IMG/VR virus record: IMGVR_UViG_3300025652_000047
Location: 1-64,000 of that record
DNA length: 64,000 nt
Strand: one strand, 5' to 3'
Origin: a virus
Shown here: positions 5,703 to 40,711 of the stretch, in pieces
How the letters are laid out: each line of letters begins with the position of its first letter
How positions within the stretch are numbered: the stretch's first letter is position 1
Program-made: the position numbers and the translations under genes
Notes under the pieces: model-generated
Seen by the model: only the letters and a program-made list of their open reading frames with translations
Told to the model about the DNA's origin: nothing
The model's database searches: none

Positions 5703-7355
5703 TTAACTTTCACATGCTATACAAGAGTTTATTTCTCTAGCAAAATTCTGAGCTTCAGACTCTCCTATTTGGTAATATAATGTTTTTACACCTTCTTTCC
5801 AAGCTGTAATATACAATTGATTAATATCTTTTATAGATATATCATCATGTATACTTAAATTTAAACTTTGGGATTGATCTATAAACTTCTGTCTTTGTGC
5901 AGCTTGAGTTATTATTTCCATAGGACTAATTTCTACAAAGCTTTTAAATACTTCTTTATTAGGAATATCTAAATGCTGTACAGAACCATTATTATCAAGT
6001 ATAGACTTCCATATAGTAGGTGTATTCTTACCTATAGATTCTAAATGTCTAAGTAATGTAGGATTTTTGTATACTGATTTTACTTTAGCAGTATCCTTTA
6101 CAAAGTAATTAGAAGTTATAGGTTCTATACCTAACGATACTTGTCCAAGTATAAAGCTAGAACTCTTAGTAGGTGCAATAGCCATAGTAGTTGTATTTGC
6201 TCTACCTTCAATATAACTATTACTTATTCCTAATTCTGTATGACAATACTCAGAAGCTTTATAGGAGTCTTTCTTTAGGGTTTTAAATACTTCTTGGTTA
6301 AATTGTTTAGCTTTTATAGATTCAAACTCTATAAAATGCTCTTGTAAGTAACTATGGTATCCTAAAACTCCTATTCCAATTGCTCTATGGTTCTCTGCAA
6401 ATCTTACTGCTCTACCCATTCCTGGTAAATTCTTAGCTTTATTAATAAAATCTTGCATTACTGCATTTAAAAATAAAGTATAACAATGAATAGCATTTGT
6501 ATCTTTTATTTCATCCCAATGTAGTAAATTAATACTACCTAAGCAACATACAAATGATTCATCTATATTACTAGGTAAACATATTTCTGAACAAAGATTA
6601 GATGCTAGTATAATTTCCTCTTTATAAGGACTATTATCATTTACATTATCTTTGAAAAATATATAAGGGTAGCCTACTTCTTTTCTGCTTTCTATTAACT
6701 TAGCCCATACTACTCTTGAATGCTGATCTCCAGCTATCATCTTTTCCATAAAAGAATTCCCTACACATATACCATGTTGTAAATTCTGTATATCATTACC
6801 TTCTTTTCCAATATCTAAAAATTCTAGTATATCGTCATGTTCAATATCTAAATATATAGCACAAGCCCCTCTACGAGCTTCAGCCTGCTTACATTTATCT
6901 ATTATGGTATCAAATATATGGGAATAGTGTGTAGGACCGTCAGCAAGCCCTCCTGTGCTAATAGGAGTACCTCTAGGTCTAATTGCAGATACATATGCAG
7001 ATGTACCTCCTCCATACTTAGACATCATTCCTAATTCTCTACCCATATTAAGGATAGAATCTAAAGAATCATCACAGTAAGAACCATAGCAGCTAATAGC
7101 TAGTCCATCTTTCCTACCAAAGTTAGTCCATACAGGAGTACTAAAGGAATAATATCCTAAACTTGCGTAATTATAAAATTCAGTTACAAAAGATTGTCCT
7201 AATCCAAGTATGGAAGCTGCATTTTCAGCCATATCTTGAATTCTGGATTCACCTGTTTCATTTTCTTTTAAGTATCCTCTACTTAAAAAAGTTCTACTCT
7301 CTTCATTTAACCAGTAGAATGGCTTTCTGTCTTTATTAATCATCGAATAAGTCAT
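5703..7355 (-). CDS. nrdA: Ribonucleoside-diphosphate reductase class I, alpha subunit (no ATP-cone)
   Basis: FSTPVW.N.G, ISCY, GGGT, SNLCSEI, AIAPT.SSS, C-terminal CIAC. Confidence 0.95.
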   Translation of the reverse strand: MTYSMINKDRKPFYWLNEESRTFLSRGYLKENETGESRIQDMAENAASILGLGQSFVTEFYNYASLGYYSFSTPVWTNFGRKDGLAISCYGSYCDDSLDSILNMGRELGMMSKYGGGTSAYVSAIRPRGTPISTGGLADGPTHYSHIFDTIIDKCKQAEARRGACAIYLDIEHDDILEFLDIGKEGNDIQNLQHGICVGNSFMEKMIAGDQHSRVVWAKLIESRKEVGYPYIFFKDNVNDNSPYKEEIILASNLCSEICLPSNIDESFVCCLGSINLLHWDEIKDTNAIHCYTLFLNAVMQDFINKAKNLPGMGRAVRFAENHRAIGIGVLGYHSYLQEHFIEFESIKAKQFNQEVFKTLKKDSYKASEYCHTELGISNSYIEGRANTTTMAIAPTKSSSFILGQVSLGIEPITSNYFVKDTAKVKSVYKNPTLLRHLESIGKNTPTIWKSILDNNGSVQHLDIPNKEVFKSFVEISPMEIITQAAQRQKFIDQSQSLNLSIHDDISIKDINQLYITAWKEGVKTLYYQIGESEAQNFAREINSCIACES

Positions 7356-8316
7356 TTGCGGTTATTGATTTTGTTTTCTTAGTATAATCTATTGATCTTT
7401 TATAGAATATATCTCCTTCCTTTTTACTTTGTAATTCTACATCAAACCATAGAGTTGATTTTAAAAGGCTTTCGTCTATATCAAATTCTTTATCATATCC
7501 TATACTTTCTAAACTATTATTAAATCTGTTCTTTATAAACTCTTGGACTACTTTTACAGGTAAGAAATCTAATTTCCCCTCTTCAAATATCCAATCTAGT
7601 ACTTTACATTCTGCTTTATAAGCTTTCTGAACTGCAGATCTTATTAATTCTTCAAATTCTGAATCAAACCATTCTGGGTTTTCTTTTTTAATTATATTAA
7701 TTAATTCAGATCCAAACTGTCCATGTATTGTTTCTTCTTTACTAGTTGCTTGAACTACATTATCCATTCCACTAAGTACATTAAGCTCTTTGTTGAAAGA
7801 CATTATAATTAAGAATTGACTAAATAAAGATACATTCTCTATAAATAAACTAAATAATAATACGGACTTAGTAAACATTTTATTATCTCTACTTCTAGTA
7901 CCATCTAAATACTTATTTAAGTACTTTATTCTAGCTTGAATAGCAGGTACTTCTACTACAGTTTCAAATTCTCTCTGCAATCCAAGTTTCTCTATTAGGA
8001 AACTATAAGCATCAAAATGTCGTACTTCACTATCTGAAAAAGTAGCTCCAGTTGCTTGAATTTCAAGTACGGGGAGTCTTTTATACAGATCTCCCCAGAA
8101 TGCTTTTACGTTAACTTCTATTTGAGATATAGCTAACATTGCTCTTTTTATAACTTCTCTTTGTACTGGTGTTAGAGTAGTTTTATAATCAGATATATCA
8201 TTAGTTAGATTAAATTCAGTATGTAACCAGTAACTATGCCTTATTGCTTCCTTATATTTGAGTAGTTGAGGATATTCATAAGGTAATAAGGTTTTTCTTT
8301 CTTTAAATATTCCCAT
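7336..8316 (-). CDS. nrdB: Ribonucleotide reductase class I, beta subunit
   Basis: PYEYP, SQIE, SEVRH..AY, FIENVSLFSQF, KEETIH di-metal ligands. Confidence 0.95.
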   Translation of the reverse strand: MGIFKERKTLLPYEYPQLLKYKEAIRHSYWLHTEFNLTNDISDYKTTLTPVQREVIKRAMLAISQIEVNVKAFWGDLYKRLPVLEIQATGATFSDSEVRHFDAYSFLIEKLGLQREFETVVEVPAIQARIKYLNKYLDGTRSRDNKMFTKSVLLFSLFIENVSLFSQFLIIMSFNKELNVLSGMDNVVQATSKEETIHGQFGSELINIIKKENPEWFDSEFEELIRSAVQKAYKAECKVLDWIFEEGKLDFLPVKVVQEFIKNRFNNSLESIGYDKEFDIDESLLKSTLWFDVELQSKKEGDIFYKRSIDYTKKTKSITANDLFDD

Positions 8317-8719: not shown

Positions 8720-8972
8720 CTATTAGTTCTTTATATACTGCAGCTTCAGAGTAATTTTCAGCATCAACAGCTTGTTTTAATAATCTATGTAATTCTTCTA
8801 CATCATTTTCTACTATAGTTCGGTCTATAGTTCGTATGACTCCATTTTCTACATCCCATGCTTTTTCTACAGTACAGACCCCGTCAATTTCCTTTTTAAA
8901 CTCTCTATCTGGCAATCTGTCTGGTATAGGATGAATAAAGCCATCAAAGTATTCATCAAATATTGTTATCAT
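8688..8972 (-). CDS. Protein with C-terminal UVR (UvrB/UvrC) coiled-coil motif
   Basis: L...L.QAV.AENY.EAA.YK..I. Confidence 0.65.
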   Translation of the reverse strand: MITIFDEYFDGFIHPIPDRLPDREFKKEIDGVCTVEKAWDVENGVIRTIDRTIVENDVEELHRLLKQAVDAENYSEAAVYKELIDEKTIYKKNS

Positions 8973-9454
8973 AATTTGTTTAATGTTTTATAATAGTCAG
9001 TTTCTTTAAGTTTTAGAAATTGATCATATTTTTGTGTAATATAAATTTTACCTACTATTCGAGTAGAATTCTGATCTCTAGAGATACAAGTGTTAAGTGG
9101 TGTATTAAACTCTTTGATATAGAATAAGTCTCCATAGAAACTTGCCATAGTCTCAAACTCTTCTAAAGAAGCTTTTTTTAAGTTAATATTGTCTACTATA
9201 ACATCTATACCTCTCATATTTAACAAAGATACTAATTTATTAACAGAATACCAAATTATTTGCTCATTTTCTTTTAATTTTTTATGATTCCAATATTCTC
9301 GTATTCTAGCTGGATTGTAAGCAAATAACATTTCCCTTAATCTATCAGCATTTACTCTGACAGTATTAGGGTTTTCCCTGATATACTGTTGGCTCCAAGT
9401 AGATTTCCCTGATCTTGGAGGTCCAACAGTAAGAATAATTTTATTCTTCTTCAT
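8969..9454 (-). CDS. Polynucleotide kinase-like P-loop kinase (AAA_33)
   Basis: GPPRSGKSTW, RVN.D.LR, VIVDN.NL, C..R...R. Confidence 0.85.
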   Translation of the reverse strand: MKKNKIILTVGPPRSGKSTWSQQYIRENPNTVRVNADRLREMLFAYNPARIREYWNHKKLKENEQIIWYSVNKLVSLLNMRGIDVIVDNINLKKASLEEFETMASFYGDLFYIKEFNTPLNTCISRDQNSTRIVGKIYITQKYDQFLKLKETDYYKTLNKL

Positions 9455-9662: not shown

Positions 9663-9999
9663 CTTGTTTGTTATACCAGTTAATAAATTCTATTACTAAG
9701 GAATATACCTCTTCTATGATTGTACAGGAGCCAGGAAAGTTACCATATAAAGTTAAATCTTTAGTTACTTCTTGATAAAAAAGACATCTATGACCTGTTA
9801 TACACCAAATTTTCTCTACTACAGGCATTAACCAATTCCAATCTTCATCGAATAGTAGTTCGTCAAAACAGTTGCCGTCTTGTTTATCATAGACCATCTG
9901 TGACATCCTCATCTCATTGTCGTACCATCCAATGTTCTTTTCTTTAGTGAATCCCATAAATTCAGCTATACGTTTATTACTTTCTACTACATTATCCAT
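9655..9999 (-). CDS. Conserved Bacteroidota-phage protein
   Basis: N..IAEFMG ... DWNWLMPVVEKI ... FI.WYN. Confidence 0.65.
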   Translation of the reverse strand: MDNVVESNKRIAEFMGFTKEKNIGWYDNEMRMSQMVYDKQDGNCFDELLFDEDWNWLMPVVEKIWCITGHRCLFYQEVTKDLTLYGNFPGSCTIIEEVYSLVIEFINWYNKQDG

Positions 10000-10942
10000 C
10001 TAGCTGTTCATTTTTAAAAAAGAAAGACTTTGCTTTAGTCCATTCTCTCCAGTTATAATGAGGTCTTCTTTTATCAGAATTAAATAACCAATTCCAATAC
10101 CTACCCCATCTTTTAGCAGTAGTAGGGCATGAATTTAAAGTAGGAGCTGTATTAACTTCTAATACATATGCTTTATCATCCTTGAACATTACATCTACAC
10201 CTCCACAATCAAGCCCTAGAGCCTCTACAGCGTGTACTGATTGCTTTAATACATCTAAGTAAGGTTCTGAATCATTCCATCTTACAACTTCAAATCCAGC
10301 TACATCATCTTCTACATTACCACCTCTATTGGCTGCTATATTCCAAGCTATATTACCATTGTTAGGGTTTTGCTTCTTCATGAGTCTAAGTACTTTACCA
10401 TGCCCTACATGTGTTCTAAATTCTAATTCTTTATCTATGAATCTAGCATAGTAGTACTTTTCAGGATTATAATGTGCATTAAACTCTTGTATACTATTAA
10501 GTATAATAAAGTTTTTACCTTTACTATGTACAAAAGGTCTGCATATAATAGGTAAATGTTTCTTTTTAATGTTATTAGGATTGATACTCTTAGGTACTCT
10601 AACTTCAGACTCATTCATTATAACTCTAGCTAATCCTTTGTCAGTTGCATTCCGTAATCCAGGGATCTTATTATAGACTATAGAACTAGCATTAGTATCT
10701 ATTGGCTCTTGGGAACCCCATCTGAGTACTACATAATCAGAAAAGTCTAGAGTATCGTCTTTTACTTTCTTATAGTTTTCTTTACTTTCTTGACTAAATA
10801 CTCTATAGTATTTTACAAATTTACCATTTCTTTTAGTAAATTGTCTTCTTTGTACTAGATTACCTGTATCACATGATTTAAACGCTTCTTTAGTCGAAGG
10901 TCTTCCATGTTTACCTGTAAGTACTACTTTTACTTTTGTCAT
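9992..10942 (-). CDS. ATP-grasp peptide ligase (RimK/phiEco32-like)
   Basis: P.I.RP..HSKG, EFR.HV, LGLD.GGVD, VLEVNTAP. Confidence 0.9.
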   Translation of the reverse strand: MTKVKVVLTGKHGRPSTKEAFKSCDTGNLVQRRQFTKRNGKFVKYYRVFSQESKENYKKVKDDTLDFSDYVVLRWGSQEPIDTNASSIVYNKIPGLRNATDKGLARVIMNESEVRVPKSINPNNIKKKHLPIICRPFVHSKGKNFIILNSIQEFNAHYNPEKYYYARFIDKELEFRTHVGHGKVLRLMKKQNPNNGNIAWNIAANRGGNVEDDVAGFEVVRWNDSEPYLDVLKQSVHAVEALGLDCGGVDVMFKDDKAYVLEVNTAPTLNSCPTTAKRWGRYWNWLFNSDKRRPHYNWREWTKAKSFFFKNEQLDG

Positions 10943-10949
10943 TTTAATA

Positions 10950-11594
10950 TTATATTAATAAATGATTATTAAAAACCTCTTCTTTAAATATAGGAGGTAA
11001 ATCTAATTCAATGTCTACAGCTATATCTTCTGGATATCCAAATTCTGCTTTTAGTAAATTTCTAAAGCCAGGTCTACCTTTATTATCTTTGTGCAATACA
11101 AGGTTATCCTGGTTTCTACTTTCTATTTTACCTTCTTTAATTATTTTTGGAAACAGCAAGTTTATATCTTCTACATTAGGATATAACTGACTATACTTAC
11201 CTTGTAAAAAATTTAGTTTCATATCTTCATATGGTAATTCTACCACTATCATATGGTAATTTTTATCGTAAGTATAATCAGTTACAAATCCTTTCTTTTG
11301 TTTAATCATAGCTAATCCTGCAGTAAACTTATTAGTGTAATGTTCCTTACTAGCATATTTATTTTTATGGTAAGGTCCAAATACATCTACAAGTATATAA
11401 AAGGTATTATCTAAGATTGATTTCTCATTAAATTCTAAATCTCCAACTCCAGTTGCAAGTATTGTAAACCTATTTAGTATATAAGCGTAAATACTTTTGT
11501 TAGTTAATTGTATACTGGGGTATAGGTATTTAAGACTTTTATTCTGAAATCTCTGTCCTGGTTGAATCTTTATCTGGTTGTTCTTGCTCCACAT
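10950..11594 (-). CDS. Conserved crAss-like hypothetical protein
   Basis: N.S..YL.P ... F..GKYS.LY ... ELD.PP...EE.F. Confidence 0.55.
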   Translation of the reverse strand: MWSKNNQIKIQPGQRFQNKSLKYLYPSIQLTNKSIYAYILNRFTILATGVGDLEFNEKSILDNTFYILVDVFGPYHKNKYASKEHYTNKFTAGLAMIKQKKGFVTDYTYDKNYHMIVVELPYEDMKLNFLQGKYSQLYPNVEDINLLFPKIIKEGKIESRNQDNLVLHKDNKGRPGFRNLLKAEFGYPEDIAVDIELDLPPIFKEEVFNNHLLI

Positions 11595-12042
11595 ACGTTG
11601 TTTTTGCAGTAACTACCTCTTTCATTAAGGCTTTCCAGTCTTTAAATGTCATAGTAATAAGATGTTCTTCTGGCTTATTACCAAATTTATGCATTAAAAG
11701 TCTAGGAGCCTTAAAGATTGTATGGTCGGAAGGAAAATACTCGCTCAATTTCTCGTGCATTTTTCTAAATTCAACATCAGCTTTAGGTCTTTGTTTAAGA
11801 TACCCTGCTTTACATTGAATTAGAAAATCTAAGTTGTCTGTAATTGGTCCATTAGGTGCAATATCTACACAACAATCATCTAGTAATCTACTACATGCTC
11901 TAGTTGTTTTTGCTTTGGTCCAACCCAAATCCTTGAGTACATTCACGATCATTCTTTCATAACCATGTCCTTTTCTTCTACTCTTCTTTGCTCTAGCAGA
12001 TGCTTCTGCTTTACTCTTTAATTTAATGTTTTCCATGTGCAT
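11539..12042 (-). CDS. PD-(D/E)XK nuclease, Holliday junction resolvase-like
   Basis: RKGH.YER ... VDI ... IQCK. Confidence 0.75.
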   Translation of the reverse strand: MHMENIKLKSKAEASARAKKSRRKGHGYERMIVNVLKDLGWTKAKTTRACSRLLDDCCVDIAPNGPITDNLDFLIQCKAGYLKQRPKADVEFRKMHEKLSEYFPSDHTIFKAPRLLMHKFGNKPEEHLITMTFKDWKALMKEVVTAKTTYVEQEQPDKDSTRTEISE

Positions 12043-13424
12043 TGTACTTCTTTATCTTTTAAAAAAATCTCGTAATAAGGAATCTGAGCTGAATAATAAT
12101 TTGCCATCTCAGTTTTTCTATCACATACATATTTCAACAAGTGACTTTGAAGATCTTCGTTATTTAATTCTTGTAAAATATCTTTAAATGTAATTTTAGT
12201 ATTACTTTTTAAGATTTCTAAACTGTTATTTGTAGCAAATTTAATAAAAGCTATATTCAATAACAGCCAATTTGATACTTTACCGTAATTTAAAGTACCT
12301 TCATGATACCTAAATTCAATAGTTCTACTGTCTGTAAAAAAGTAGTTATTCATATTAATTATAGAATATCTATTCGTATAGTGCCATTTTTGATTACCAT
12401 TCTTAGAGTGAGTTCTATTTTCTGGATTACTTCTTTCAGTTGGAGGTACTCCATCATTCCAAAAAGTCCAAATATCAGTAAAAGCTTTATTTAAACTTTC
12501 TTGATTAATAGATCCATCTTCTAATATATAATTTCTACCATAAGCTAAATTTAACTCAGGTAGTAATTTACAGTAATCTTTTGCGTCTCTACCTCTTCTA
12601 GTTAATGCAGATAACATTTTTTTAAATGGAGGAAACATAGCGTTAATTTCATTTTGAAATCTATACATCAATAAGTAGAAAGATACTGCAAACTCTTTTG
12701 TTCTAGGTAAATTTCCAATATGAATATGAGTACTAGTTTTCTCATCTACACTACACTGTCTAGATAAGTAATAACATTGTTCTTTTAGAGAAGATAATTC
12801 TCCACTCATAGGTACTGTTATATACTCATAACCACCTATACTTCCATCTTTTACAGGTACTAGATAAGTATCTTTCATCATATTTGGATGTAATGCACCT
12901 TCACTAGTTTCAAACTCAACTCCGTAAGTATAATCAAATACTTCATTTACTTTTGATAAATGCTTAGACTCTTGTATATACTTAGCCCATGCTATATCAA
13001 ATTGTGCATTGTTATCAGCACCATATAATCTAGTATTAAACTCTCCATAGTTTTCAACTGTTGCAGTTGGACTTGCATGAAAGATATCAGTTCCTGCTCT
13101 ATAGTAGTATTTTGGAAATTCTCTATAATCTTTAATATAAAATCCATCTATAGTTTTTACAGTATACTTATCTTTTCTAAAATACTCAAGTTCTCCATTA
13201 GGTTTTATTAGCCCTTTAACAATAGCATCAGTTAATCTACAATAAAGTTGCCTTTTCTTATTATAGTAACAATCAGTACTTTTATACCAGTATAAAGATC
13301 CTACTTTATAAGCTTCTCCACTATCTAATTTATTTCTCTTACCTTTAATGTACCACTCATTATCTATGAGGGTACATTTGTCTTTTAAAGTTTCATATCC
13401 ACTCTTCGTAATTACTGTTAGCAT
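12018..13424 (-). CDS. Amidoligase (COOH-NH2 ligase, Amidoligase_2 type)
   Basis: YGVEFET, DGSI.GYEY.T, STHIHIG, TIEFR.HEGT. Confidence 0.88.
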   Translation of the reverse strand: MLTVITKSGYETLKDKCTLIDNEWYIKGKRNKLDSGEAYKVGSLYWYKSTDCYYNKKRQLYCRLTDAIVKGLIKPNGELEYFRKDKYTVKTIDGFYIKDYREFPKYYYRAGTDIFHASPTATVENYGEFNTRLYGADNNAQFDIAWAKYIQESKHLSKVNEVFDYTYGVEFETSEGALHPNMMKDTYLVPVKDGSIGGYEYITVPMSGELSSLKEQCYYLSRQCSVDEKTSTHIHIGNLPRTKEFAVSFYLLMYRFQNEINAMFPPFKKMLSALTRRGRDAKDYCKLLPELNLAYGRNYILEDGSINQESLNKAFTDIWTFWNDGVPPTERSNPENRTHSKNGNQKWHYTNRYSIINMNNYFFTDSRTIEFRYHEGTLNYGKVSNWLLLNIAFIKFATNNSLEILKSNTKITFKDILQELNNEDLQSHLLKYVCDRKTEMANYYSAQIPYYEIFLKDKEVQCTWKTLN

Positions 13425-14694
13425 ATTCTTTATATTTTTCTAATGTTTCAAATATTACAGTCCCTTCTGGGTCTAAATCTTCTTTGTCAAATTCAAATAG
13501 TATAGAATCCATAGTTTTATGTAATTCTTCTATTTGGTCCATAAAATCTTGTGGCGAATAATATGCCATTTTTATGAATTGTCCTTGATCAAAATGGTAA
13601 TAAGTTTCTGATCCTATAGGTTGTATTATGCCATCAGCAAGTTCATCTTGATTAAAAAAGTAAGCATTTACATCTGCATTGTAGTATAACATATGGTGAG
13701 AAATATCCTTACTAAGTTGATCGTACTCTTTATCTATTAATCCTATATTTAAAGCAGTAGTTTCTAACGGATTTTCAGAAGGTTTATTGATAATATCAAC
13801 TAAAATTCCATTTATAAATTTCAATTTACTTTGAAAGTTATTCTCATGCATACTTACAATACTACCATCTTTAAGAAAGTTACCAACTCCAGTGTATAGC
13901 TTATTATCTTTATAATATGCTCCTCCACAGTATAGTACTTTACTACTACTTTTATTTAAAGAATCTAAAGTAGAAAAAGAAAGATTGTAAGGTAAAGCTA
14001 ATGCTTGTCGTTGTACTTTTGCTAATTCTACAAGTGGATAATTTCTATCTATAGGAGTTTCTTTTGTAACAGCAGCTTTATCATTCATTGTTATTAAAGA
14101 ATTACATAAAAAATGACTAACTACATTACCCTCAGCTATAACTTCTAAATCTCTTTCTAAAGTAGAAAAATACATAGTAGTACCTATATAACAAAAATGT
14201 AAAGGTCTTTCTACTTCTCCACCACTTTTACCAATCCAAAAAGTTGTAGAAGTTTTGTGCCTATATACAAAAGTTGCTCCACCAGTATAATATTGTAGAA
14301 ATTCAGTATTACCTTCTTTCATTAACTTTAATAGGTAACTAGTATCATTACTTCCAAGGTCACCAGATATACCAGTAATTTCTTCTAAAGCAAATTGGTT
14401 TTTAATAGTACCATTTAATACAAATACATGGTCACCATCTACTAGAGGCTGTGCATTTTTAACAGTATTAGCACCACTAGACCCTTTTCTAGTATGTCCT
14501 AATACAAACTTATTAGCTTTCTTAGGATACTCAGATTCTAAAGTAAGAGAATAAAAATCTCCAAGAGATTTTGTACATTTTTTATTAGTATAAATACCAG
14601 CAGAGTCTCCACCTCTTTCGTTATTTAATACACCAAGTATTTTAATCTTATTTAAATCTATGTTTGAGCCTATAGCTCCAAAAATTCCACACAT
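13393..14694 (-). CDS. Class II (Ntn) glutamine amidotransferase
   Basis: N-terminal MCGIFG, ERG.DSAG, GHTRK.S.G, NG.I.N, NDT. Confidence 0.9.
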   Translation of the reverse strand: MCGIFGAIGSNIDLNKIKILGVLNNERGGDSAGIYTNKKCTKSLGDFYSLTLESEYPKKANKFVLGHTRKGSSGANTVKNAQPLVDGDHVFVLNGTIKNQFALEEITGISGDLGSNDTSYLLKLMKEGNTEFLQYYTGGATFVYRHKTSTTFWIGKSGGEVERPLHFCYIGTTMYFSTLERDLEVIAEGNVVSHFLCNSLITMNDKAAVTKETPIDRNYPLVELAKVQRQALALPYNLSFSTLDSLNKSSSKVLYCGGAYYKDNKLYTGVGNFLKDGSIVSMHENNFQSKLKFINGILVDIINKPSENPLETTALNIGLIDKEYDQLSKDISHHMLYYNADVNAYFFNQDELADGIIQPIGSETYYHFDQGQFIKMAYYSPQDFMDQIEELHKTMDSILFEFDKEDLDPEGTVIFETLEKYKEYANSNYEEWI

Positions 14695-15050
14695 TATAAA
14701 TTTTGTTTTTTAGTTATAAAATCAACCCAATCTCCATTTTTAATTAGATTATTTGGATTGGTAAATCCCATATATGGATACAATTTACCTTGTACTCCAT
14801 CTATAGTAATATCTACTTCTGCATATCCTGCTCCTATTTCCATTCTATGGATCCCTTCGTAGTCTTCTTGGCTTACTTCTATTAAGTCAACTACTAAGCT
14901 TCTACTACCTTGTAAAATGCCTGGGTAAGATCCTAAAGAATATAAATCATAACCATGTACAACATGGCTACTTATGTGATTTAAAGATTTAATATGGTTT
15001 GCATTATACATCCCTGGTCTTAAGCTTCCGTATACAAATATGTTTTGCAT
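14694..15050 (-). CDS. Gamma-glutamylcyclotransferase (AIG2-like)
   Basis: IFVYGSLRPG..N, LG.YPG, ME...GY, I..GDW. Confidence 0.9.
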   Translation of the reverse strand: MQNIFVYGSLRPGMYNANHIKSLNHISSHVVHGYDLYSLGSYPGILQGSRSLVVDLIEVSQEDYEGIHRMEIGAGYAEVDITIDGVQGKLYPYMGFTNPNNLIKNGDWVDFITKKQNL

Positions 15051-15877
15051 GATTCTTCTTTTAAATAATTAATATTATTTTCGTCACAATATAGTCTAGC
15101 TGCTTCTACATCATAGTTGTTAATGATATCTTCTATAGGAGAGTATTCATTTATATCTTCCCTAATATACATAACATCTTTATTTAAGTCTTCACCTAAT
15201 TCAAGTTGTTGTATACAAGTTTCTATACCTTCCCATACCCATTCAATTAACTTAGCACTAGATAAGAAATAAGCTCCTAAAGATCTACATTCAATACCGT
15301 AATCTTTAAATCTTATTTCTCCTGCTCTGCCGTATAATTCTCTACGACCTCTTTCTGGATCTAATAAAATAGAAGGTAAGGTAATGTATTTATCAAACAA
15401 CTTAGCTAATCTTTCTTGTGTACCTATGTCTGTATTTTCATCTTTATCAGCAATACTTTCATGTCCAAAGTGAATATGAAATCCTGCAGATCTTAAATTA
15501 GGGTTTGTAGATTGTACAGGTGTACTCATACCTCGTTTGTATACATTCATACTGCTTTCACACCCAAATAAGGTAGCTTCAGCAGTATTTAACTCTTCAT
15601 CTGGGTATATTAACATTGAATTAAAACTATACTCATACTCAGGTATCATTTCAGCTACAGTAGTTAATCCATATTCAATATAACTAATGAATTCTTCAAA
15701 ATTATTTACTGGAGGTTGTGTAATTTCAACATTTACATTGTCTTCTTGTCTTGCACATCCATTACCAATACTTAAAGGCTCATCTTTAGTGCCTCCTATT
15801 TTACCTACTATAGATACAGGTATACCATTTTTTGCTATAGGAATTTCATAATCAGTCCCAATTTTCCAATCTTTCAT
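15020..15877 (-). CDS. phiEco32-like COOH-NH2 ligase type 2
   Basis: IG.D.E, GGTK..P, QEDNV..E, FGC, RSAG.HIH.G, RRELYG.AG..R...YG.E.R.L. Confidence 0.9.
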   Translation of the reverse strand: MKDWKIGTDYEIPIAKNGIPVSIVGKIGGTKDEPLSIGNGCARQEDNVNVEITQPPVNNFEEFISYIEYGLTTVAEMIPEYEYSFNSMLIYPDEELNTAEATLFGCESSMNVYKRGMSTPVQSTNPNLRSAGFHIHFGHESIADKDENTDIGTQERLAKLFDKYITLPSILLDPERGRRELYGRAGEIRFKDYGIECRSLGAYFLSSAKLIEWVWEGIETCIQQLELGEDLNKDVMYIREDINEYSPIEDIINNYDVEAARLYCDENNINYLKEESCKTYLYTEA

Positions 15878-16556
15878 CTAATGTTGTTTTTATTAAATAA
15901 TCAAATAATTTTGTATTTTCTAACTCTTCCATATGACCTTGGAATCCAAATATATTCTTACCTTTTACTCTGAATAATTCTAAATTGCTTTGCTCTTTTG
16001 AATATGCAATAGGACTAATCTCACTAGGTAAGGTTTTTAAATTTACAGTCTGATGGTGTAATGAATTAACTCCTGAAGTATATCCAGGAATAAATTGTAA
16101 ATAATTATACTTTTGGGTTAACTTTAAGTTCTCAACTATTTTACCTCTGTTCCCTTTGTTATTGTGTTGAGTAAAAAAAGAACCCTGAGTACTAGATGGA
16201 AGTTCTACATGTTGATTTAATGTGCCTCCATAATGTACATATAAGTCTTGAAATCCACGGCAAACTCCTATTATTGGAATATTAGCCTCAATATAATCTG
16301 GAAGAATATATTGTGAGAAATAATCATATTCTACATTAGGTGCTCCACTACCAATTCTATATTCTCCATATCTAAGAGGATTAATATCTGCACCCCCAGT
16401 AAGAACTATTGCATCTAAACTTTTATTAACTCCTTCATATGGAGCTATTGATTGTAAAGATCCAAACTTACTAAAGTATGTAAGATATGCTTGATTAACT
16501 TCGTAAGCTCCTTTATTAGTTTTATTTGGATATAGTATTCCTATTTTGTAATGCAT
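15852..16556 (-). CDS. Peptidase C26 / class I glutamine amidotransferase (PuuD-like)
   Basis: LTGGADI.P..YG, GVCRG.Q, VNSLHHQ, QGH.E. Confidence 0.88.
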   Translation of the reverse strand: MHYKIGILYPNKTNKGAYEVNQAYLTYFSKFGSLQSIAPYEGVNKSLDAIVLTGGADINPLRYGEYRIGSGAPNVEYDYFSQYILPDYIEANIPIIGVCRGFQDLYVHYGGTLNQHVELPSSTQGSFFTQHNNKGNRGKIVENLKLTQKYNYLQFIPGYTSGVNSLHHQTVNLKTLPSEISPIAYSKEQSNLELFRVKGKNIFGFQGHMEELENTKLFDYLIKTTLDERLENWD

Positions 16557-22948: not shown

Positions 22949-23584
22949 TTAAAGGTCGTTGTTTAATAATTTGTGAGAATATGCAGTTACTATACTCTTG
23001 AATCTTTCTGGTGCTCCTTCATGTTCAGGATGCCCTTGCACTGCTAACATATGAGTTTCTGGATAGTATACTATTTCTGGTTCAATTTCTGGCTTTTCAA
23101 ATCCATGAGGTAGTCCTTCGTATACTTTAGTTAACTCAGATGCAAAAGCTAATATCTTGTACTGATGTTTCTTTAAGTTAAAAGGATACATCATTTGATG
23201 GTGAGTACTAGTTACATCATAAGTTTCTTTAAAATGAGTATCTGTTACAGGATGGATATAAGATTGTCCTCTTACATTTTGAATTAACTTACCACCTGAA
23301 TATACTGTAGCAAGCTGTGCTCCTCTACAAATACCTAATATAGGTAACTGTAAAACTATAGCTTTAGCTATTTCTTCACATTCATTGATATCTCTAGTAG
23401 GGTTATAACTAGTAGTTGGGTGTTTAGTTTCATTATATAGTGCTGGCATTACATCTGCTCCACCTGTTAATATAACTATATCTGCTTTTTCTAAAGTATC
23501 TACTACAATTGAATTTTGGATTGCATTTTTATATGTAGACTCTCCACCTATAATATATACATTAATATTGTTATTTTTACTCAT
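22949..23584 (-). CDS. Second peptidase C26 / class I GATase
   Basis: LTGGADV.P.LY, GICRGAQ, STHHQMM, QGHPE. Confidence 0.88.
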   Translation of the reverse strand: MSKNNNINVYIIGGESTYKNAIQNSIVVDTLEKADIVILTGGADVMPALYNETKHPTTSYNPTRDINECEEIAKAIVLQLPILGICRGAQLATVYSGGKLIQNVRGQSYIHPVTDTHFKETYDVTSTHHQMMYPFNLKKHQYKILAFASELTKVYEGLPHGFEKPEIEPEIVYYPETHMLAVQGHPEHEGAPERFKSIVTAYSHKLLNNDL

Positions 23585-30331: not shown

Positions 30332-30358
30332 TGTTATTTATTTAATGATTAAAAAAAA

Positions 30359-30505
30359 TATACTCCTGTGGACTTGAACCACAATTAATAATAACTTCAG
30401 GATGTTCCCTGCATTTTATATTATACCATTGAACCTCTCAGTAAAGAGTCAGTTCTGGACTTATGACTTTGTTATTATTAACCTCGCACGTAAAGAGAGA
30501 GTATA
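30359..30505 (-). ncRNA. tRNA-shaped RNA with the anticodon loop replaced by a 75-nt domain
   Basis: Acceptor TATACTC/GAGTATA; T-arm TGTGG-TTCAAGT-CCACA; 11-bp stem TTAATAATAAC/GTTATTATTAA. Confidence 0.6.
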
Positions 30506-30659
30506 CACTTGAACACTCTTGGAAACATTGTTTGTGTTAGCACCATCATAATAGCTGAATCCTAGTCATTGAACAAGCCTATTGCACTATTATAATGGTC
30601 ACGTAGATACATTAAAATTACAGGTCTTAAACAGGGTTTATGTAATGTTATTCCCTATG

Positions 30660-31250
30660 CGTCTGCACCTTTATCTACTTGCTGTAAACTCCTAAGTGTG
30701 TAAACTAATCAGCTCACTATTTATATTCTATCAACATATTACAATACAGTTGATACACTTGAATGATTTATATACTAGATATGAGAATCTAAGCGATATT
30801 ATTTTCAAACTCATTTTTAATTATGTTTCTAACAAACACACTCAAGTAATTTATATTCACTCTTCATTTAATTGCTTATGAAGGGTTTAAGTCTTCAATT
30901 GAGTCAATTAGGTGGTAGGTTTCACCTGCTAATTCATAAAATAGGTCACGACCTTCGTCTGTCTACCTAGTCTACATGTTAATGCAGCTTACTTGAAAGC
31001 TTATACATTGGCGCATCAATAGGGACTTTCAGCCTATTAGATTAACTCCATTTATGCTTTGGATTCATGGATTCCCATGTATTATCTCCAATGTATAAGT
31101 AATAATACACTCAATGTCTTATGCAATTACCAGTCAATACTACTAGAGTACTGAATTTCTGCAACCTGCATAAGACGTAGATAAAGGTACACAAGCTGAT
31201 CAGTGCTTACCCAACTCCGTTTTCCTCCCAATATCTACAGGAGTGTGTAT
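30660..31250 (-). ncRNA. Large (~600 nt) pseudoknotted ncRNA candidate
   Basis: Perfect 10-12 bp helices 30667-78/31177-88, 31000-11/31088-99, 31116-25/31167-76; also 30705-14/31194-203 and 30688-93/31239-44; mismatches resolve as G-U on the minus strand; no credible ORF. Confidence 0.65.
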
Positions 31251-31363
31251 AATACTATAACCAAACCTCATGGTTACTACGCATACTTAATTTTAGATGT
31301 GGTATATATTTTGTTGTATGTTCCACTTTTCCAATGTTGGTAGGTTATAGTATATTAAATTTG

Positions 31364-31413
31364 TAAGTGCTGAAGGACTCGAACCTCTATCTGCTACCTA
31401 ACTAGCGCACTTA
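31364..31413 (-). ncRNA. 50-nt mini-tRNA mimic (acceptor + D-like + T arm, no anticodon arm)
   Basis: TAAGTGC/GCACTTA stem, GCTA-GTTAGG-TAGC hairpin, AGG-TTCGAGT-CCT T-loop. Confidence 0.55.
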
Positions 31414-31661
31414 TGAACAACTACTTAAAATCGTAGCTGTTCGCTGAATCTTGAGTCATTAAGACCCCATATATACTTACGAACATAGTATAGTATTTAG
31501 TAGTTAATGTTATGACCCTCTATAGATCAAGATTTCAATGCCTTTTAGCTTAGTCTAAGTATTAATACCTACATAGAATGTAAGCATAATACTCCACTAG
31601 CTAATACTGGTGAGGCTTATTACAACCTCATGGTTTATTGCCATTTGCAATTTACATGTGT

Positions 31662-31725
31662 AGAATTTTGCTATTCCATAGCAAAATTTGAGGGTGAACC
31701 CTACCCGTTTAAGGGTAGAGTTCTA
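31662..31725 (-). terminator. Tandem hairpins downstream of the 105-aa early gene
   Basis: AATTTTGCTAT/ATAGCAAAATT and GAAC.CTACCC/GGGTAG.GTTC inverted repeats. Confidence 0.55.
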
Positions 31726-31729
31726 GCCA

Positions 31730-32047
31730 CTAGAAGTTAGTGACGCTGTCCTCCCAGACCACGTGGTGGTTGGTGTACGAAGTCCCTTGGACGACTTCCA
31801 TTTCGCCAGTAGTCTGGTTCGGAACTTTTTTAGGTTGCGCTACCACAACTTTAGTGCGAAGCTCGAACTTGTCACCGTTAGGCACTAGTCTTTTGGCGAA
31901 AGACTCAGCGTTAAAGCTGATTCGAGTCCTAGTCTCGTTAATCCACTGAGACTGATAGCCGTTAGGCTTACCTGTTTCACGGTCAAGCTCAGGCTTAGTG
32001 CCAAATGAAGTAATGTCTAATTTTGCTTTGATTTCAGAAAGTGTCAT
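31730..32047 (-). CDS. Hypothetical protein, first gene of the leftward unit, with atypically high GC
   Basis: 105-aa ORF with visibly more C/G than its neighbours; A-rich leader; followed by hairpins. Confidence 0.7.
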   Translation of the reverse strand: MTLSEIKAKLDITSFGTKPELDRETGKPNGYQSQWINETRTRISFNAESFAKRLVPNGDKFELRTKVVVAQPKKVPNQTTGEMEVVQGTSYTNHHVVWEDSVTNF

Positions 32048-37218: not shown

Positions 37219-37290
37219 GGCTTAGTAGCTCAACTGGAAGAGCCCTACCTTTTAAGTAGGAAGATATAGGTTCGACTCCTATCTAAGCCA
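37219..37290 (+). tRNA. tRNA-Lys (TTT)
   Basis: GGCTTAG/CTAAGCC acceptor, TAGCTCAACTGGAAGAGC D-arm, CCTAC-CTTTTAA-GTAGG, ATAGG-TTCGACT-CCTAT; CCA not encoded. Confidence 0.92.
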
Positions 37291-37315
37291 CAATAATATA
37301 ACGTATGAAAAACGT

Positions 37316-40300
37316 ATGAAAGAATATAAACATTGGAATTGTGGGCAGCCTGACTGGATAAAGATAGATAATATAAAAGAATTTAATCTAGATGAGGTAA
37401 AGATATTCCACCCACAAGATCCTAGATATGTAGAGTATTGGAAGCAAGAGAAGAAGTACTGTATAGAAGGCAGGTGGGAAAGACAATTTGGAGGATGGAT
37501 GCATATGCCAGGTTGTTTATATTTCTATGGTAAGTTTGGTATAATTGTAGATACAGACAAGTTTACAAAAGTAACTGAAAAAATTAAACCCCTAATCCAG
37601 GACTTAGAGTTTGAACAAGCTTTTATGTTTTGGGAAGCTAGGGGTTTTTCTGGGTATATAGATGACGATGAATATACCTCAGATAACATGTGGTTCAAAT
37701 TCAATGAGAAAGGATTACCTACCACAGAAGAGATAGAGAAAATGGGAGATTCCCAAAGAACTGCAGTTCTTAACCTTATAAATAATAATGGTAATTTAAA
37801 GGAATATCTAACACCAAGAAAGAATTTAAGAAGAATTGCAGAGAAGCCTTTAGGTAGACCTTTGTTTCAAAATGATGCAAAGAATAAAGATACTATGGGT
37901 TGTCATGCTAAAGATAGTAAATTTAGAATGTATGATGGTTCTGTTAAAGAAGTATTTGATATAAAAATTGGGGATGCTTTAATGGGTCCCGATAGTTCTC
38001 CAAGAGAAGTTAATGAAATATTAACTGGAGAGAATGTTATGGTTAAAATTACTCCTAAATATGGAGACGCTTTTAAAATAACTCCAAATCATATTCTTAG
38101 AGTTAGGGAAACTAATAAACATACAAATGAAAAATTAGAATATGATTTACCTGTTTGGGAATATTTAAACAAATCAGATTCTAAAAAATCATTTATAGAA
38201 ATAATAGATAGAAATAAAATTGAATATCCTGAAGTACCTTTAGTTTTAGACCCTTACTTTATAGGACTATGGTTAGGAGATGGGTTTAAAAGAGAGAAAT
38301 TAATATGTATTAATCAAGGTAAAGATAAAGAAATTTTAAATTGGTTATTAGAATATTGTAACTCTAAAGATAATTTGTCATATACTACTTCCGTATCTAA
38401 AAACGGTTTATCAAATGGTTTTACAACTAGATTTAGATTAACAGATTCTAATTTATCAGGTAAAGGAAATTATTGGGCTAAAACTTTTAGAAATAACAAA
38501 CACATACCTAATGAGTATCTTATTAATAGTTTAGATAATAGATTAAAATTATTAGCAGGGTATATTGATTCTGATGGATGTTACGAAAAAAAATCAAATA
38601 GATATACAATTACGTCTGTAGATTTAGATTTATTAACCCAAACGCAAGAGTTAGCAAGATCCTGTGGATTTAGAGCAGAGATAAATAAACCTAGTAAAAC
38701 TGGTATTACTGATTCTTTAAAATATAACTTAAGAATTATAGGAGATATTAATTCTATTCCAGTGAAATTAAGTTATAAAAAAGCAACAGGAATTAGAGAA
38801 AAATTCCATAGAAATACATTTACAACTCAAGTATTACCTCCTGAAAAGTTCTATGGAGTAGAAGTTGATAAAGATCATTTGTATATGCTTGCTGATGGTA
38901 ACAAAGATCACAACAGTAGGGGTGGAGGTAAGAGTTTCTTTGAAGCTGTTGCAGTCCAACTATATACTTTAACTTTTGATGGGGCTACAGAGTATATTAT
39001 AGATCAAGTACAAAAGGTTGAGACTTGTATAGGTTCAGGAGATACTGATAAGTCAGGAGAACTTGTACAGAAAGTAGTAGATGCAATGAATGAGTTTGCT
39101 ATTAACCCTAAGCTAGGAGCATGGGGACAACAGGGAGACTCTGACTGGACTCCTAATCCTTTTTATAGGGATATGAATGGACCAACTAACGCAGGTAACA
39201 AGCAAAAAGGAGGTTGGGTACATAAGTACGAGAAGAAGATTAATGGTAGATGGGTAGATGGATTTGGAACAGGAACAAGAATGTTTCATGTATCTTACTC
39301 TTCAAATAAGAAAGCAGGAGCAGAAGCAGGAGCTGGAGGTAGATATAATGTATCTACAGTAGAGGAAAAAGGTTTAACTATATTACTTATAATGTTGTGG
39401 AACTCAAATAGAGCCACAGTAATGAGAAATGGAGTTCAATTTGGAGTACAATCTTTCTTAGGAACATCTGGTAATGCAGAACTAGTATTACCTTCAAAAG
39501 AGATGTTTACTACTCCTCATGAATTTAACCTAGTAGCTTATCCTGATGTATGGGAAGGCACTGGAGATCTAGGATTCTTTATACCTGCGTATATGACGTA
39601 TAGGCAATTTAAAGATGTAAATGGAAATACAGATGTTAAAGCAGCGAGAGAGCATTGGTTAAAAGGGTATTTAGCAGCAGGAGAATCTGCAAACCCTAAG
39701 ACTCTTAGGATGTACTGTATGAATTATCCTGATATACCATCTCATATGTGGGTAACAGATGCTCAGTATCTTTTACCTTATGAAGAAGCTATAGATAGAG
39801 AGAGGCATTTAATGGATAAGAAGTTATACCAAACCATAGGTACTGCTATAGATTTAAGATGGGATACTTCAAAACAGAATGGAGTTACTTATGATATAGT
39901 ACATAATCCACAGCCTTTCTATGATTTTCCAATTAGGAAGGATATGGAAAGGATGGATGGAGAAATAATGATGTATCAGACTCCACAAGAGATTAGAGGA
40001 GTTGTACCTAATGATATGTATTTCTTTGTACATGATCCATATGTATCAGATAACCAAGAAGACGGGGCTTCATTAGGGGTAACCTATGGATTTTTAAATC
40101 CTAAATATTCAGTAACACATGATGGAAGTCAATTAGTATGTTCATATATAGGAAAGCCAAAAGGAGGAAAAAAAGCATATTATCAAAATTTAGAGAAGTT
40201 ATTAGCTTTCTACGGCAATCCCTTTAGGGGACTAGCATATGAAGCAAACAGAGGAGAGTACTGTAGGTCTTATTTCGAGAAGAAAGGGAAACTACATTTA

Positions 40301-40711
40301 CTAGCTTTAAGACCACAGCATGCAAAGGGAGATGGCATATACGAAAAAAATGTTACTCAATTTGGATATATGGTTGGAGCTAGAGGAGCAATAGGTAAAT
40401 TAACTATGGTAGATGATACTAATGATTTTTTATTATCAGATGTAGTTAGGAGTAATGGTACAAATAAATTAATTGAGACTATACCTTGTATATTTTTAAT
40501 TAGACAAATAGCACAGTTTACATTGAATGGTAACTTTGATGCAGTATCATCTTTAATTTTAGTACCTACATTTATTTCAGAACAAGAGTCCTATATGACT
40601 CAAATTAGAAAACAAAAAGAAACAAACAGATTACAGTTTTTATCAACAAATAGCGCAATACATGACAAGAATAATAGACACAAAGGAAAAGGTATTAACA
40701 GGCTTATCTAA
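37316..40711 (+). CDS. Terminase large subunit (crAss-like), intein-containing
   Basis: YW..E...CIEG...MPG.LYFY, RGGGKS Walker A, EE.G Walker B, GTSG, HDPY nuclease, YEANRG, GNFD.VS. Confidence 0.9.
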   Translation: MKEYKHWNCGQPDWIKIDNIKEFNLDEVKIFHPQDPRYVEYWKQEKKYCIEGRWERQFGGWMHMPGCLYFYGKFGIIVDTDKFTKVTEKIKPLIQDLEFEQAFMFWEARGFSGYIDDDEYTSDNMWFKFNEKGLPTTEEIEKMGDSQRTAVLNLINNNGNLKEYLTPRKNLRRIAEKPLGRPLFQNDAKNKDTMGCHAKDSKFRMYDGSVKEVFDIKIGDALMGPDSSPREVNEILTGENVMVKITPKYGDAFKITPNHILRVRETNKHTNEKLEYDLPVWEYLNKSDSKKSFIEIIDRNKIEYPEVPLVLDPYFIGLWLGDGFKREKLICINQGKDKEILNWLLEYCNSKDNLSYTTSVSKNGLSNGFTTRFRLTDSNLSGKGNYWAKTFRNNKHIPNEYLINSLDNRLKLLAGYIDSDGCYEKKSNRYTITSVDLDLLTQTQELARSCGFRAEINKPSKTGITDSLKYNLRIIGDINSIPVKLSYKKATGIREKFHRNTFTTQVLPPEKFYGVEVDKDHLYMLADGNKDHNSRGGGKSFFEAVAVQLYTLTFDGATEYIIDQVQKVETCIGSGDTDKSGELVQKVVDAMNEFAINPKLGAWGQQGDSDWTPNPFYRDMNGPTNAGNKQKGGWVHKYEKKINGRWVDGFGTGTRMFHVSYSSNKKAGAEAGAGGRYNVSTVEEKGLTILLIMLWNSNRATVMRNGVQFGVQSFLGTSGNAELVLPSKEMFTTPHEFNLVAYPDVWEGTGDLGFFIPAYMTYRQFKDVNGNTDVKAAREHWLKGYLAAGESANPKTLRMYCMNYPDIPSHMWVTDAQYLLPYEEAIDRERHLMDKKLYQTIGTAIDLRWDTSKQNGVTYDIVHNPQPFYDFPIRKDMERMDGEIMMYQTPQEIRGVVPNDMYFFVHDPYVSDNQEDGASLGVTYGFLNPKYSVTHDGSQLVCSYIGKPKGGKKAYYQNLEKLLAFYGNPFRGLAYEANRGEYCRSYFEKKGKLHLLALRPQHAKGDGIYEKNVTQFGYMVGARGAIGKLTMVDDTNDFLLSDVVRSNGTNKLIETIPCIFLIRQIAQFTLNGNFDAVSSLILVPTFISEQESYMTQIRKQKETNRLQFLSTNSAIHDKNNRHKGKGINRLI
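37901..38914 (+). mobile_element. Intein (338 aa) with LAGLIDADG homing endonuclease
   Basis: MG|CHAKDS...TPNHIL...FIGLWLGDG...LLAGYIDSDG...FYG.EVD.DH.Y.L.DG..DHN|S. Confidence 0.93.

Follow-up and report, generated by a model that had tools for sequence, protein, structure and literature searches.

The tRNAs that phages encode are nowadays regarded as countermeasures to host defences that target tRNAs, and the non-decoding tRNA mimics of phages are, to our knowledge, much less understood. Both tRNA punctuation and 3' processing of the mascRNA type are established principles. The species 1 RNA of phage T4 (rnaC) has, as far as we know, been without an assigned function for decades. It is a stable RNA of 139 nt (NC_000866, 70908-71046) made from the precursor of the T4 tRNA cluster, and transcription terminates just after it (PMC2330249). 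Its termini are paired, a canonical T arm adjoins the 3' strand that pairs with the 5' end, and it has no anticodon. The tRNA-like YrlA RNAs, which belong to the Y RNAs of bacteria and phages, are non-decoding RNAs with a tRNA-like domain that are cut by RNase P and receive CCA (PMC4201824). In the tRNA-like domain of tmRNA (RF00023 and relatives), the termini form the acceptor stem, the D region is reduced, the T arm is canonical, and a long helix leaves at the place of the anticodon stem. In mascRNA (RF01684), a eukaryotic RNA of ~60 nt with a short anticodon-like arm, the tRNA-like fold lies in a longer transcript.

The DNA analysed here, which we call the window, is a stretch of 64,000 nucleotides from the start of an IMG/VR virus record of 78.9 kb. 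Its DNA polymerase is ~25% identical to polymerases of crAss001-type phages, polymerase comparison places its nearest relatives among marine metagenome contigs, and the window phage is a marine crAss-like phage. On the minus strand, which it shares with the leftward early genes, lies a tRNA-like RNA of 147 nt (30359..30505), whose position i corresponds to window coordinate 30506-i and which scores 189.5 bits with a covariance model that had the window sequence as its only input (R1) and 138 bits with a three-sequence model (R2). RNAfold gave a four-way junction as both the MFE and the centroid structure, at -37 kcal/mol (z = -3.25; 0 of 200 shuffled sequences folded as well). The acceptor stem pairs UAUACUC(U) (UAUACUCU, 30505-30498) with (G)GAGUAUA (GGAGUAUA, 30366-30359), which gives 7 bp and a putative eighth pair, U8-G. 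It is followed by a D-like hairpin of 3 bp (30483..30497; CUC, a 9-nt loop and GAG), by an A/U-rich long arm in which UUAAUAAUAAC (30471..30482) pairs with GUUAUUAUUAA (30384-30395) over 11 bp, or 12 counting a closing G-U, and by a T arm, UGUGG-UUCAAGU-CCACA (30367..30383). The long arm encloses a distal domain of exactly 75 nt (30396..30470), predicted in the MFE structure to form two hairpins, GAAC..CUC/GAG..GUUC (30426-30458) and CAGG/CCUG (30398-30411). A run of eight U residues (30351..30358) stands directly 3' of the acceptor 3' strand. The first-pass annotation had described this layout, with an acceptor stem, a weak D-like hairpin, a canonical T arm and an 11-bp stem around 75 nt with hairpins, and both RNAfold structures reproduced the tRNA-shaped fold, the stem and its two-hairpin insert included. 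A search of the window for an antisense target of the 75-nt insert gave a longest match of 12 nt, which is chance level.

One hallmark of a tRNA is present: a 7-bp acceptor closed by the termini is stacked on a 5-bp T stem with a UUCRANY-type loop. Neither the window RNA nor any homologue has a 5-bp/7-nt anticodon stem-loop or a variable loop; the stem in the anticodon position is 11-15 bp long among the members and encloses 75-85 nt, and at most 1 nt lies between the long arm and the T stem. The D loop carries G-N-G, in contrast to the adjacent GG of tRNAs.

Judged by architecture, the T4 species 1 RNA is the nearest analogue of this element, not a homologue. Both are phage-encoded RNAs of ~140 nt with paired termini, a T arm beside the 3' strand and no anticodon, and the window RNA would likewise be stable. 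In T4 two separate long hairpins stand where the D and anticodon arms would sit, a resemblance by architectural analogy only, whereas the window element has a small D hairpin and one branched arm; R2 scores rnaC at 14 bits, on a par with the T4 tRNAs, so there is no sequence or profile homology. The T4 gene lies within a tRNA gene cluster, whereas the window element stands alone among small early ORFs. With tmRNA the element shares all four parts of the tRNA-like domain named above, but it is about half the length of the smallest tmRNAs and lacks the G3-U70 alanine identity pair, a tag ORF and pseudoknots. The YrlA RNAs share a tRNA-like domain on a non-decoding RNA, but their termini form the Ro60-binding stem, so that the topology is permuted relative to the window element, and they are encoded beside Ro60. 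As with mascRNA, the fold could direct RNase P and RNase Z cleavage, and its place at the 3' end of a 1.4-kb ORF-free tract recalls mascRNA; the large conserved branched arm sets it apart, and the setting is not general, the relatives being without a long ncRNA upstream.

Homologues were found in related phages. At 76-77% polymerase identity stand L052, with which L053 and L054 are equivalent, and L056, and a search of 479 kb with R1 returned full-length matches in L056 (5001-5135, 39.9 bits, E 6e-6) and in L052/L053 (5667-5805, 32.3 bits, E 2.6e-4). A fourth distinct member, in L104 (1066-1203), came from a degenerate pattern scan combined with R2, which scores L056 at 135 bits, L052/L053 at 96.5 bits and L104 at 89 bits. 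The relatives that carry the RNA, at least three, are uncultured marine phage contigs; the members are 135-147 nt long, and each of the four phage records holds a single copy.

The reach of the family was examined by several searches. Three degenerate patterns were scanned in viral contigs and two in genome contigs: L104 was the sole new member, the matches in L168 and L169 fail to fold and are put down to chance, and the scan of 185,579 species genomes gave no member, its 61 matches being ordinary tRNAs or chance. R2 found none in 151 Bacteroidota genomes, and it also picks genuine tRNAs through their acceptor and T arms, at 13-23 bits. In the fetched flanks of phages with a 29-40% identical polymerase neither R1 nor R2 had a match; a related-locus search that started from the two small ORFs flanking the element returned nothing, searches of GenBank phages with megablast and blastn gave nothing relevant, and an exact 25-mer of the element had no match among viral contigs. 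A search anchored on the terminase returned relatives at 25-33% identity only, none of them with the tRNA-like RNA. The large subunit of this terminase is unusually long (1131 aa; 37316-40711, plus strand), and terminases on contigs that bear the label of giant-virus MAGs match its ATPase part (residues 196-570) at 25-33% identity. We found no Rfam family for the tRNA-like RNA and, in our searches, no paper that describes it.

Covariation was counted over 21 tRNA-like pairs in an alignment of the four sequences. Pairing is kept in 98.8% of the pair cells, compared with 29-55% in slid-register controls, and 8 of the 21 pairs change on both sides, a level of covariation that 0 of 500 shuffles match; the four distinct members include three that are closely related, and these statistics rest on few events. 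The changes on both sides fall in acceptor pairs 5-7, in four of the five T-stem pairs and in one pair of the long arm. All eight acceptor pairs are paired in each of the four sequences (100%), with pairs 5-7 swapping CUC/GAG for GCG/CGC; this acceptor-stem covariation comes from the window copy, the most divergent member. The T stem differs in each phage (UGUGG/CCACA, GAGAG/CUCUU, GGGAG/CUCUC and AGAGG/CCUCU) around a UUCRAGU loop found in 4/4 members. Other positions are invariant: the first four acceptor pairs (UAUA/UAUA), the U8-G pair, the CUC/GAG D stem and the GUUA/UAAU base of the long arm. Pairs that never vary are uninformative on pairing, hence the contact at the elbow and the eighth acceptor pair are putative. 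The D loop keeps a U-rich 5' side and G-N-G-Y at its 3' side.

The long branched arm is present in 4/4 members. Its five basal pairs (GUUAR/YUAAU) are kept, one of them with compensatory changes. The arm of the L052 group is built of 5 bp, a 5-nt bulge, 10 bp, a 7-bp hairpin, another hairpin and an unpaired GAAAUAC, and the changes within this group turn G-U into A-U pairs, pairing being kept. The arm of the window RNA has the same two-hairpin topology and no sequence similarity to that of its relatives, the window topology being an energy prediction alone.

In the members the sense strand folds 5-10 kcal/mol better than the antisense (in the window, -37 against -31.4 kcal/mol), and the T-loop consensus and the invariant U-G and G-U pairs are confined to the gene strand, which makes this a feature of RNA and not of DNA. 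The tRNA-like RNA is neither a chance fold nor a decayed tRNA. The first-pass annotation had read it as a tRNA mimic and had proposed a covariation search in related phages; the eight compensatory pairs in four sequences and the long arm in all of them bear out a mimic under selection.

The genes around the RNA turn over while the RNA stays. The stretch compared runs from the first early gene (28% identical) to two polymerase-adjacent genes (~60% identical), and nothing in the window corresponds to the ATG-initiated ORFs of at least 40 aa that L052 and L056 carry there. Nor are the ORFs just downstream of the element related between the phages; in the window this ORF starts 27 nt past the 3' end of the RNA and 19 nt past the last base of the U-run. 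At the DNA level only the tRNA-like RNA and a motif of ~100 nt persist in the early region. The neighbouring ORFs have thus been replaced while the RNA persisted, which argues for selection on the RNA itself.

In the window the element belongs to the ORF-free tract (30332-31729, minus strand), which is heavily base-paired and extends 5' of the RNA up to the 3' side of the first early gene. The relatives carry small ORFs at this place, and most of the tract is specific to the window phage. The first early gene (31730-32047, minus strand) is G+C-rich and encodes 105 aa, with 28% identity in L052 and L056. Its product has no Pfam or PHROG family, and a search of a set of 5.8 billion proteins returned only the protein itself. 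An AlphaFold model (pLDDT 80) found nothing in the PDB with Foldseek at E <= 0.001, and the weak OB/SSB-like rows that VIA-align returned (Z <= 3.1) are uninterpretable.

The tract holds two further structured pieces. The ~100-nt motif (window 30998-31100, minus strand; L052 3699-3803, plus strand) forms a four-way junction of three hairpins and a closing stem, UACAUUGG/CCAAUGUA; its window and L052 copies are 76% identical and show five compensatory pairs in a two-sequence RNAalifold analysis, and the motif has no Rfam match. The other, a weaker tRNA-like candidate of 50 nt without an anticodon arm (31364..31413, minus strand), scores 16.1 bits with R2 (E ~0.9) and folds into acceptor, D and T arms with z = -1.56; no homologue of it was found in the relatives. 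Both tRNA-like pieces of the window have an AATGACT..GATTCAGC motif 30-48 nt upstream, and 17 of 2000 shuffles align as well. A repeated sequence, AGCTTGACCTGANNATGTCGCAAA followed by a T-run, stands after ORF stops in L052 (3661-3684 and 4072-4095) and in L056 (3393-3416); the window, searched with up to 3 mismatches, does not contain this candidate phage-specific promoter or terminator.

Elsewhere the window carries a cluster with ATP-grasp, Amidoligase_2, GATase_6, a phiEco32-like COOH-NH2 ligase and two Peptidase_C26 genes (9992-16556 and 22949-23584), which looks like a peptide- or metabolite-modifying gene set, as well as an AAA_33 kinase (8969-9454) and ribonucleotide reductase subunits (5703-8316). 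No partner protein gene travels with the tRNA-like RNA among the ORFs scanned: no tRNA-related Pfam family was found in 36 window ORFs (the rightward structural genes being left out), in five ORFs around the RNA in L052 or in the ORF after it in L104, and six-frame searches of the four phage records found no gene for PTH2 or a CCA-adding enzyme.

Our preferred reading, which we hold with about even confidence, is that the element is the gene for a non-decoding tRNA mimic cut from an early transcript by the host enzymes that process tRNAs. The mimic would be transcribed together with the leftward early genes, and its acceptor/T stack and elbow would be handled by host enzymes that size up tRNAs. 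RNase P may cut at U1, the 5' end of the mimic; the 3' end would lie at or just before the U-run, possibly with CCA added, and the product would be a stable RNA of ~140 nt, the early transcript being cut at the same time. RNase P normally measures a 12-bp acceptor/T stack. The stack of the mimic comes to 13 bp if U8-G forms, and this length and the G-N-G of the D loop are weaknesses of the processing reading. Substrate recognition by RNase P and by the CCA-adding enzyme runs through the acceptor/T stack and the elbow, without the anticodon arm (PMC4919913), and it is this part of a tRNA that the mimic conserves. The YrlA RNAs are a precedent for the action of host tRNA enzymes on such a mimic. 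The window phage also encodes a genuine tRNA-Lys(UUU) (37219-37291, plus strand), which lies immediately upstream of the terminase gene and behind a terminator-like hairpin; this tRNA has no encoded CCA, and CCA-less substrates must therefore be matured in the host, for which marine Flavobacteriia are candidates.

The strongest competitor, which we consider possible but on balance doubtful, is that the fold acts purely in cis as a punctuation mark or stabiliser: it would mark the polycistronic early transcript for RNase P and for 3' cleavage, separating the upstream RNA from the downstream ORF or leaving a protective structure on one of them, and the excised RNA would have no function of its own. 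The location of the element, always intergenic, on the gene strand and 27-43 nt before the next ATG in all four members, fits such a role equally well. In the window it would also mark the 3' boundary of a segment of ~860 nt; the 50-nt piece and the element flank this segment (30506-31363), and the one further conserved RNA motif lies within it. An acceptor/T minihelix would suffice for cleavage, yet 4/4 members keep a branched arm of 75-85 nt in which G-U to A-U changes preserve pairing, and this argues against a bare punctuation mark. The genes and RNAs on either side differ between the phages, so that there is no common cargo to release, and the second tRNA-like piece is weak and unique to the window phage. 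The first-pass annotation had also suggested a processing signal for the adjacent large RNA. This cannot be the general role, since no large ncRNA adjoins the element in L052, L056 and L104, where small ORFs stand on both sides; such a role could hold only as a local extra in the window phage.

That the element is a transcription terminator or attenuator, its closing helix and U-run acting on RNA polymerase at the end of an early unit and its tRNA shape being incidental or regulatory, we judge improbable. A run of 5-8 T residues does follow 4/4 members, directly or after two nucleotides (UA), and transcription of the T4 tRNA cluster ends after the species 1 RNA gene (PMC2330249). The helix next to the U-run, however, opens with four A-U pairs and is the closing helix of a four-way junction, in contrast to the G+C-rich hairpin with a U-run right behind it that makes an intrinsic terminator, and a terminator scan picked internal hairpins only. 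Termination would need neither a canonical T loop nor a conserved D hairpin, and the 27-43 nt before the next ORF leave no room for a promoter of its own.

That the element is a decayed tRNA, or a tRNA gene that an insertion or intron has interrupted, and has no selected function is very unlikely. The T arm and acceptor stem look tRNA-derived, and phages do carry tRNA genes, the tRNA-Lys gene of the window among them. Against this origin, all four homologues share the long arm in place of an anticodon stem-loop and variable loop, and compensatory changes maintain the pairing while the neighbouring genes are replaced. An ordinary tRNA was rejected on the missing anticodon stem-loop and variable loop, and a recent interruption on the arm common to all homologues, which disposes of the notion of ordinary tRNAs with a recent insertion. 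As for an intron, ARAGORN made no call on the window element in its default, -i and -m modes (lowered thresholds gave only overlapping junk), Rfam 15 gave no call on it at the gathering threshold or at E up to 10, an intron family included, and a group I intron would not fit into 75 nt, as the first-pass annotation had noted. Default ARAGORN and Rfam at E up to 10 made no call on the relatives either.

That the RNA is a miniature tmRNA or a YrlA-type Y RNA is scarcely credible, for although its termini lie in the acceptor stem as in tmRNA, with a reduced D arm and a long helix leaving the tRNA-like domain, pair 3 is U-A and not G-U in 4/4 members, tag frame and pseudoknot set are missing and ARAGORN -m and Rfam are silent, and against YrlA stand the opposite topology, with the termini in the acceptor stem and not in a Ro-binding stem, and the failure of a six-frame search that detected its controls to find a TROVE/Ro60 gene (PF05731) in the four phage records, which are 21-89% complete.

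Under the reading as a processed, non-decoding mimic, the constant tRNA top half would serve maturation and stability, and the long arm, variable between lineages in sequence and constant in topology, would carry the specific job of the RNA. This job would most likely be to bind or titrate a protein of the host or the phage that recognises the body of a tRNA. As candidate functions the first-pass annotation had named a decoy for anticodon nucleases and a ligand of the ribosome or a synthetase. A more specific and rather unlikely version combines these parts: the tRNA half would be a handle that borrows host maturation and the fast-evolving arm a lineage-specific payload, together forming a decoy, free of a cleavable anticodon loop, for a host factor that recognises tRNAs, such as a tRNA-targeting defence nuclease, and in the window phage the two tRNA-like marks would in addition excise the ~860-nt RNA.

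The element is a second tRNA-like phage RNA of ~140 nt, unrelated to the T4 species 1 RNA and kept while the genes next to it turn over, and it belongs to a class that standard tRNA and Rfam annotation misses. A constant tRNA top half with a variable arm offers a compact, testable model for such RNAs. That an RNA of T4 and an unrelated element of marine crAss-like phages are both tRNA-like suggests that tRNA-like RNAs may be a recurrent device of phages.
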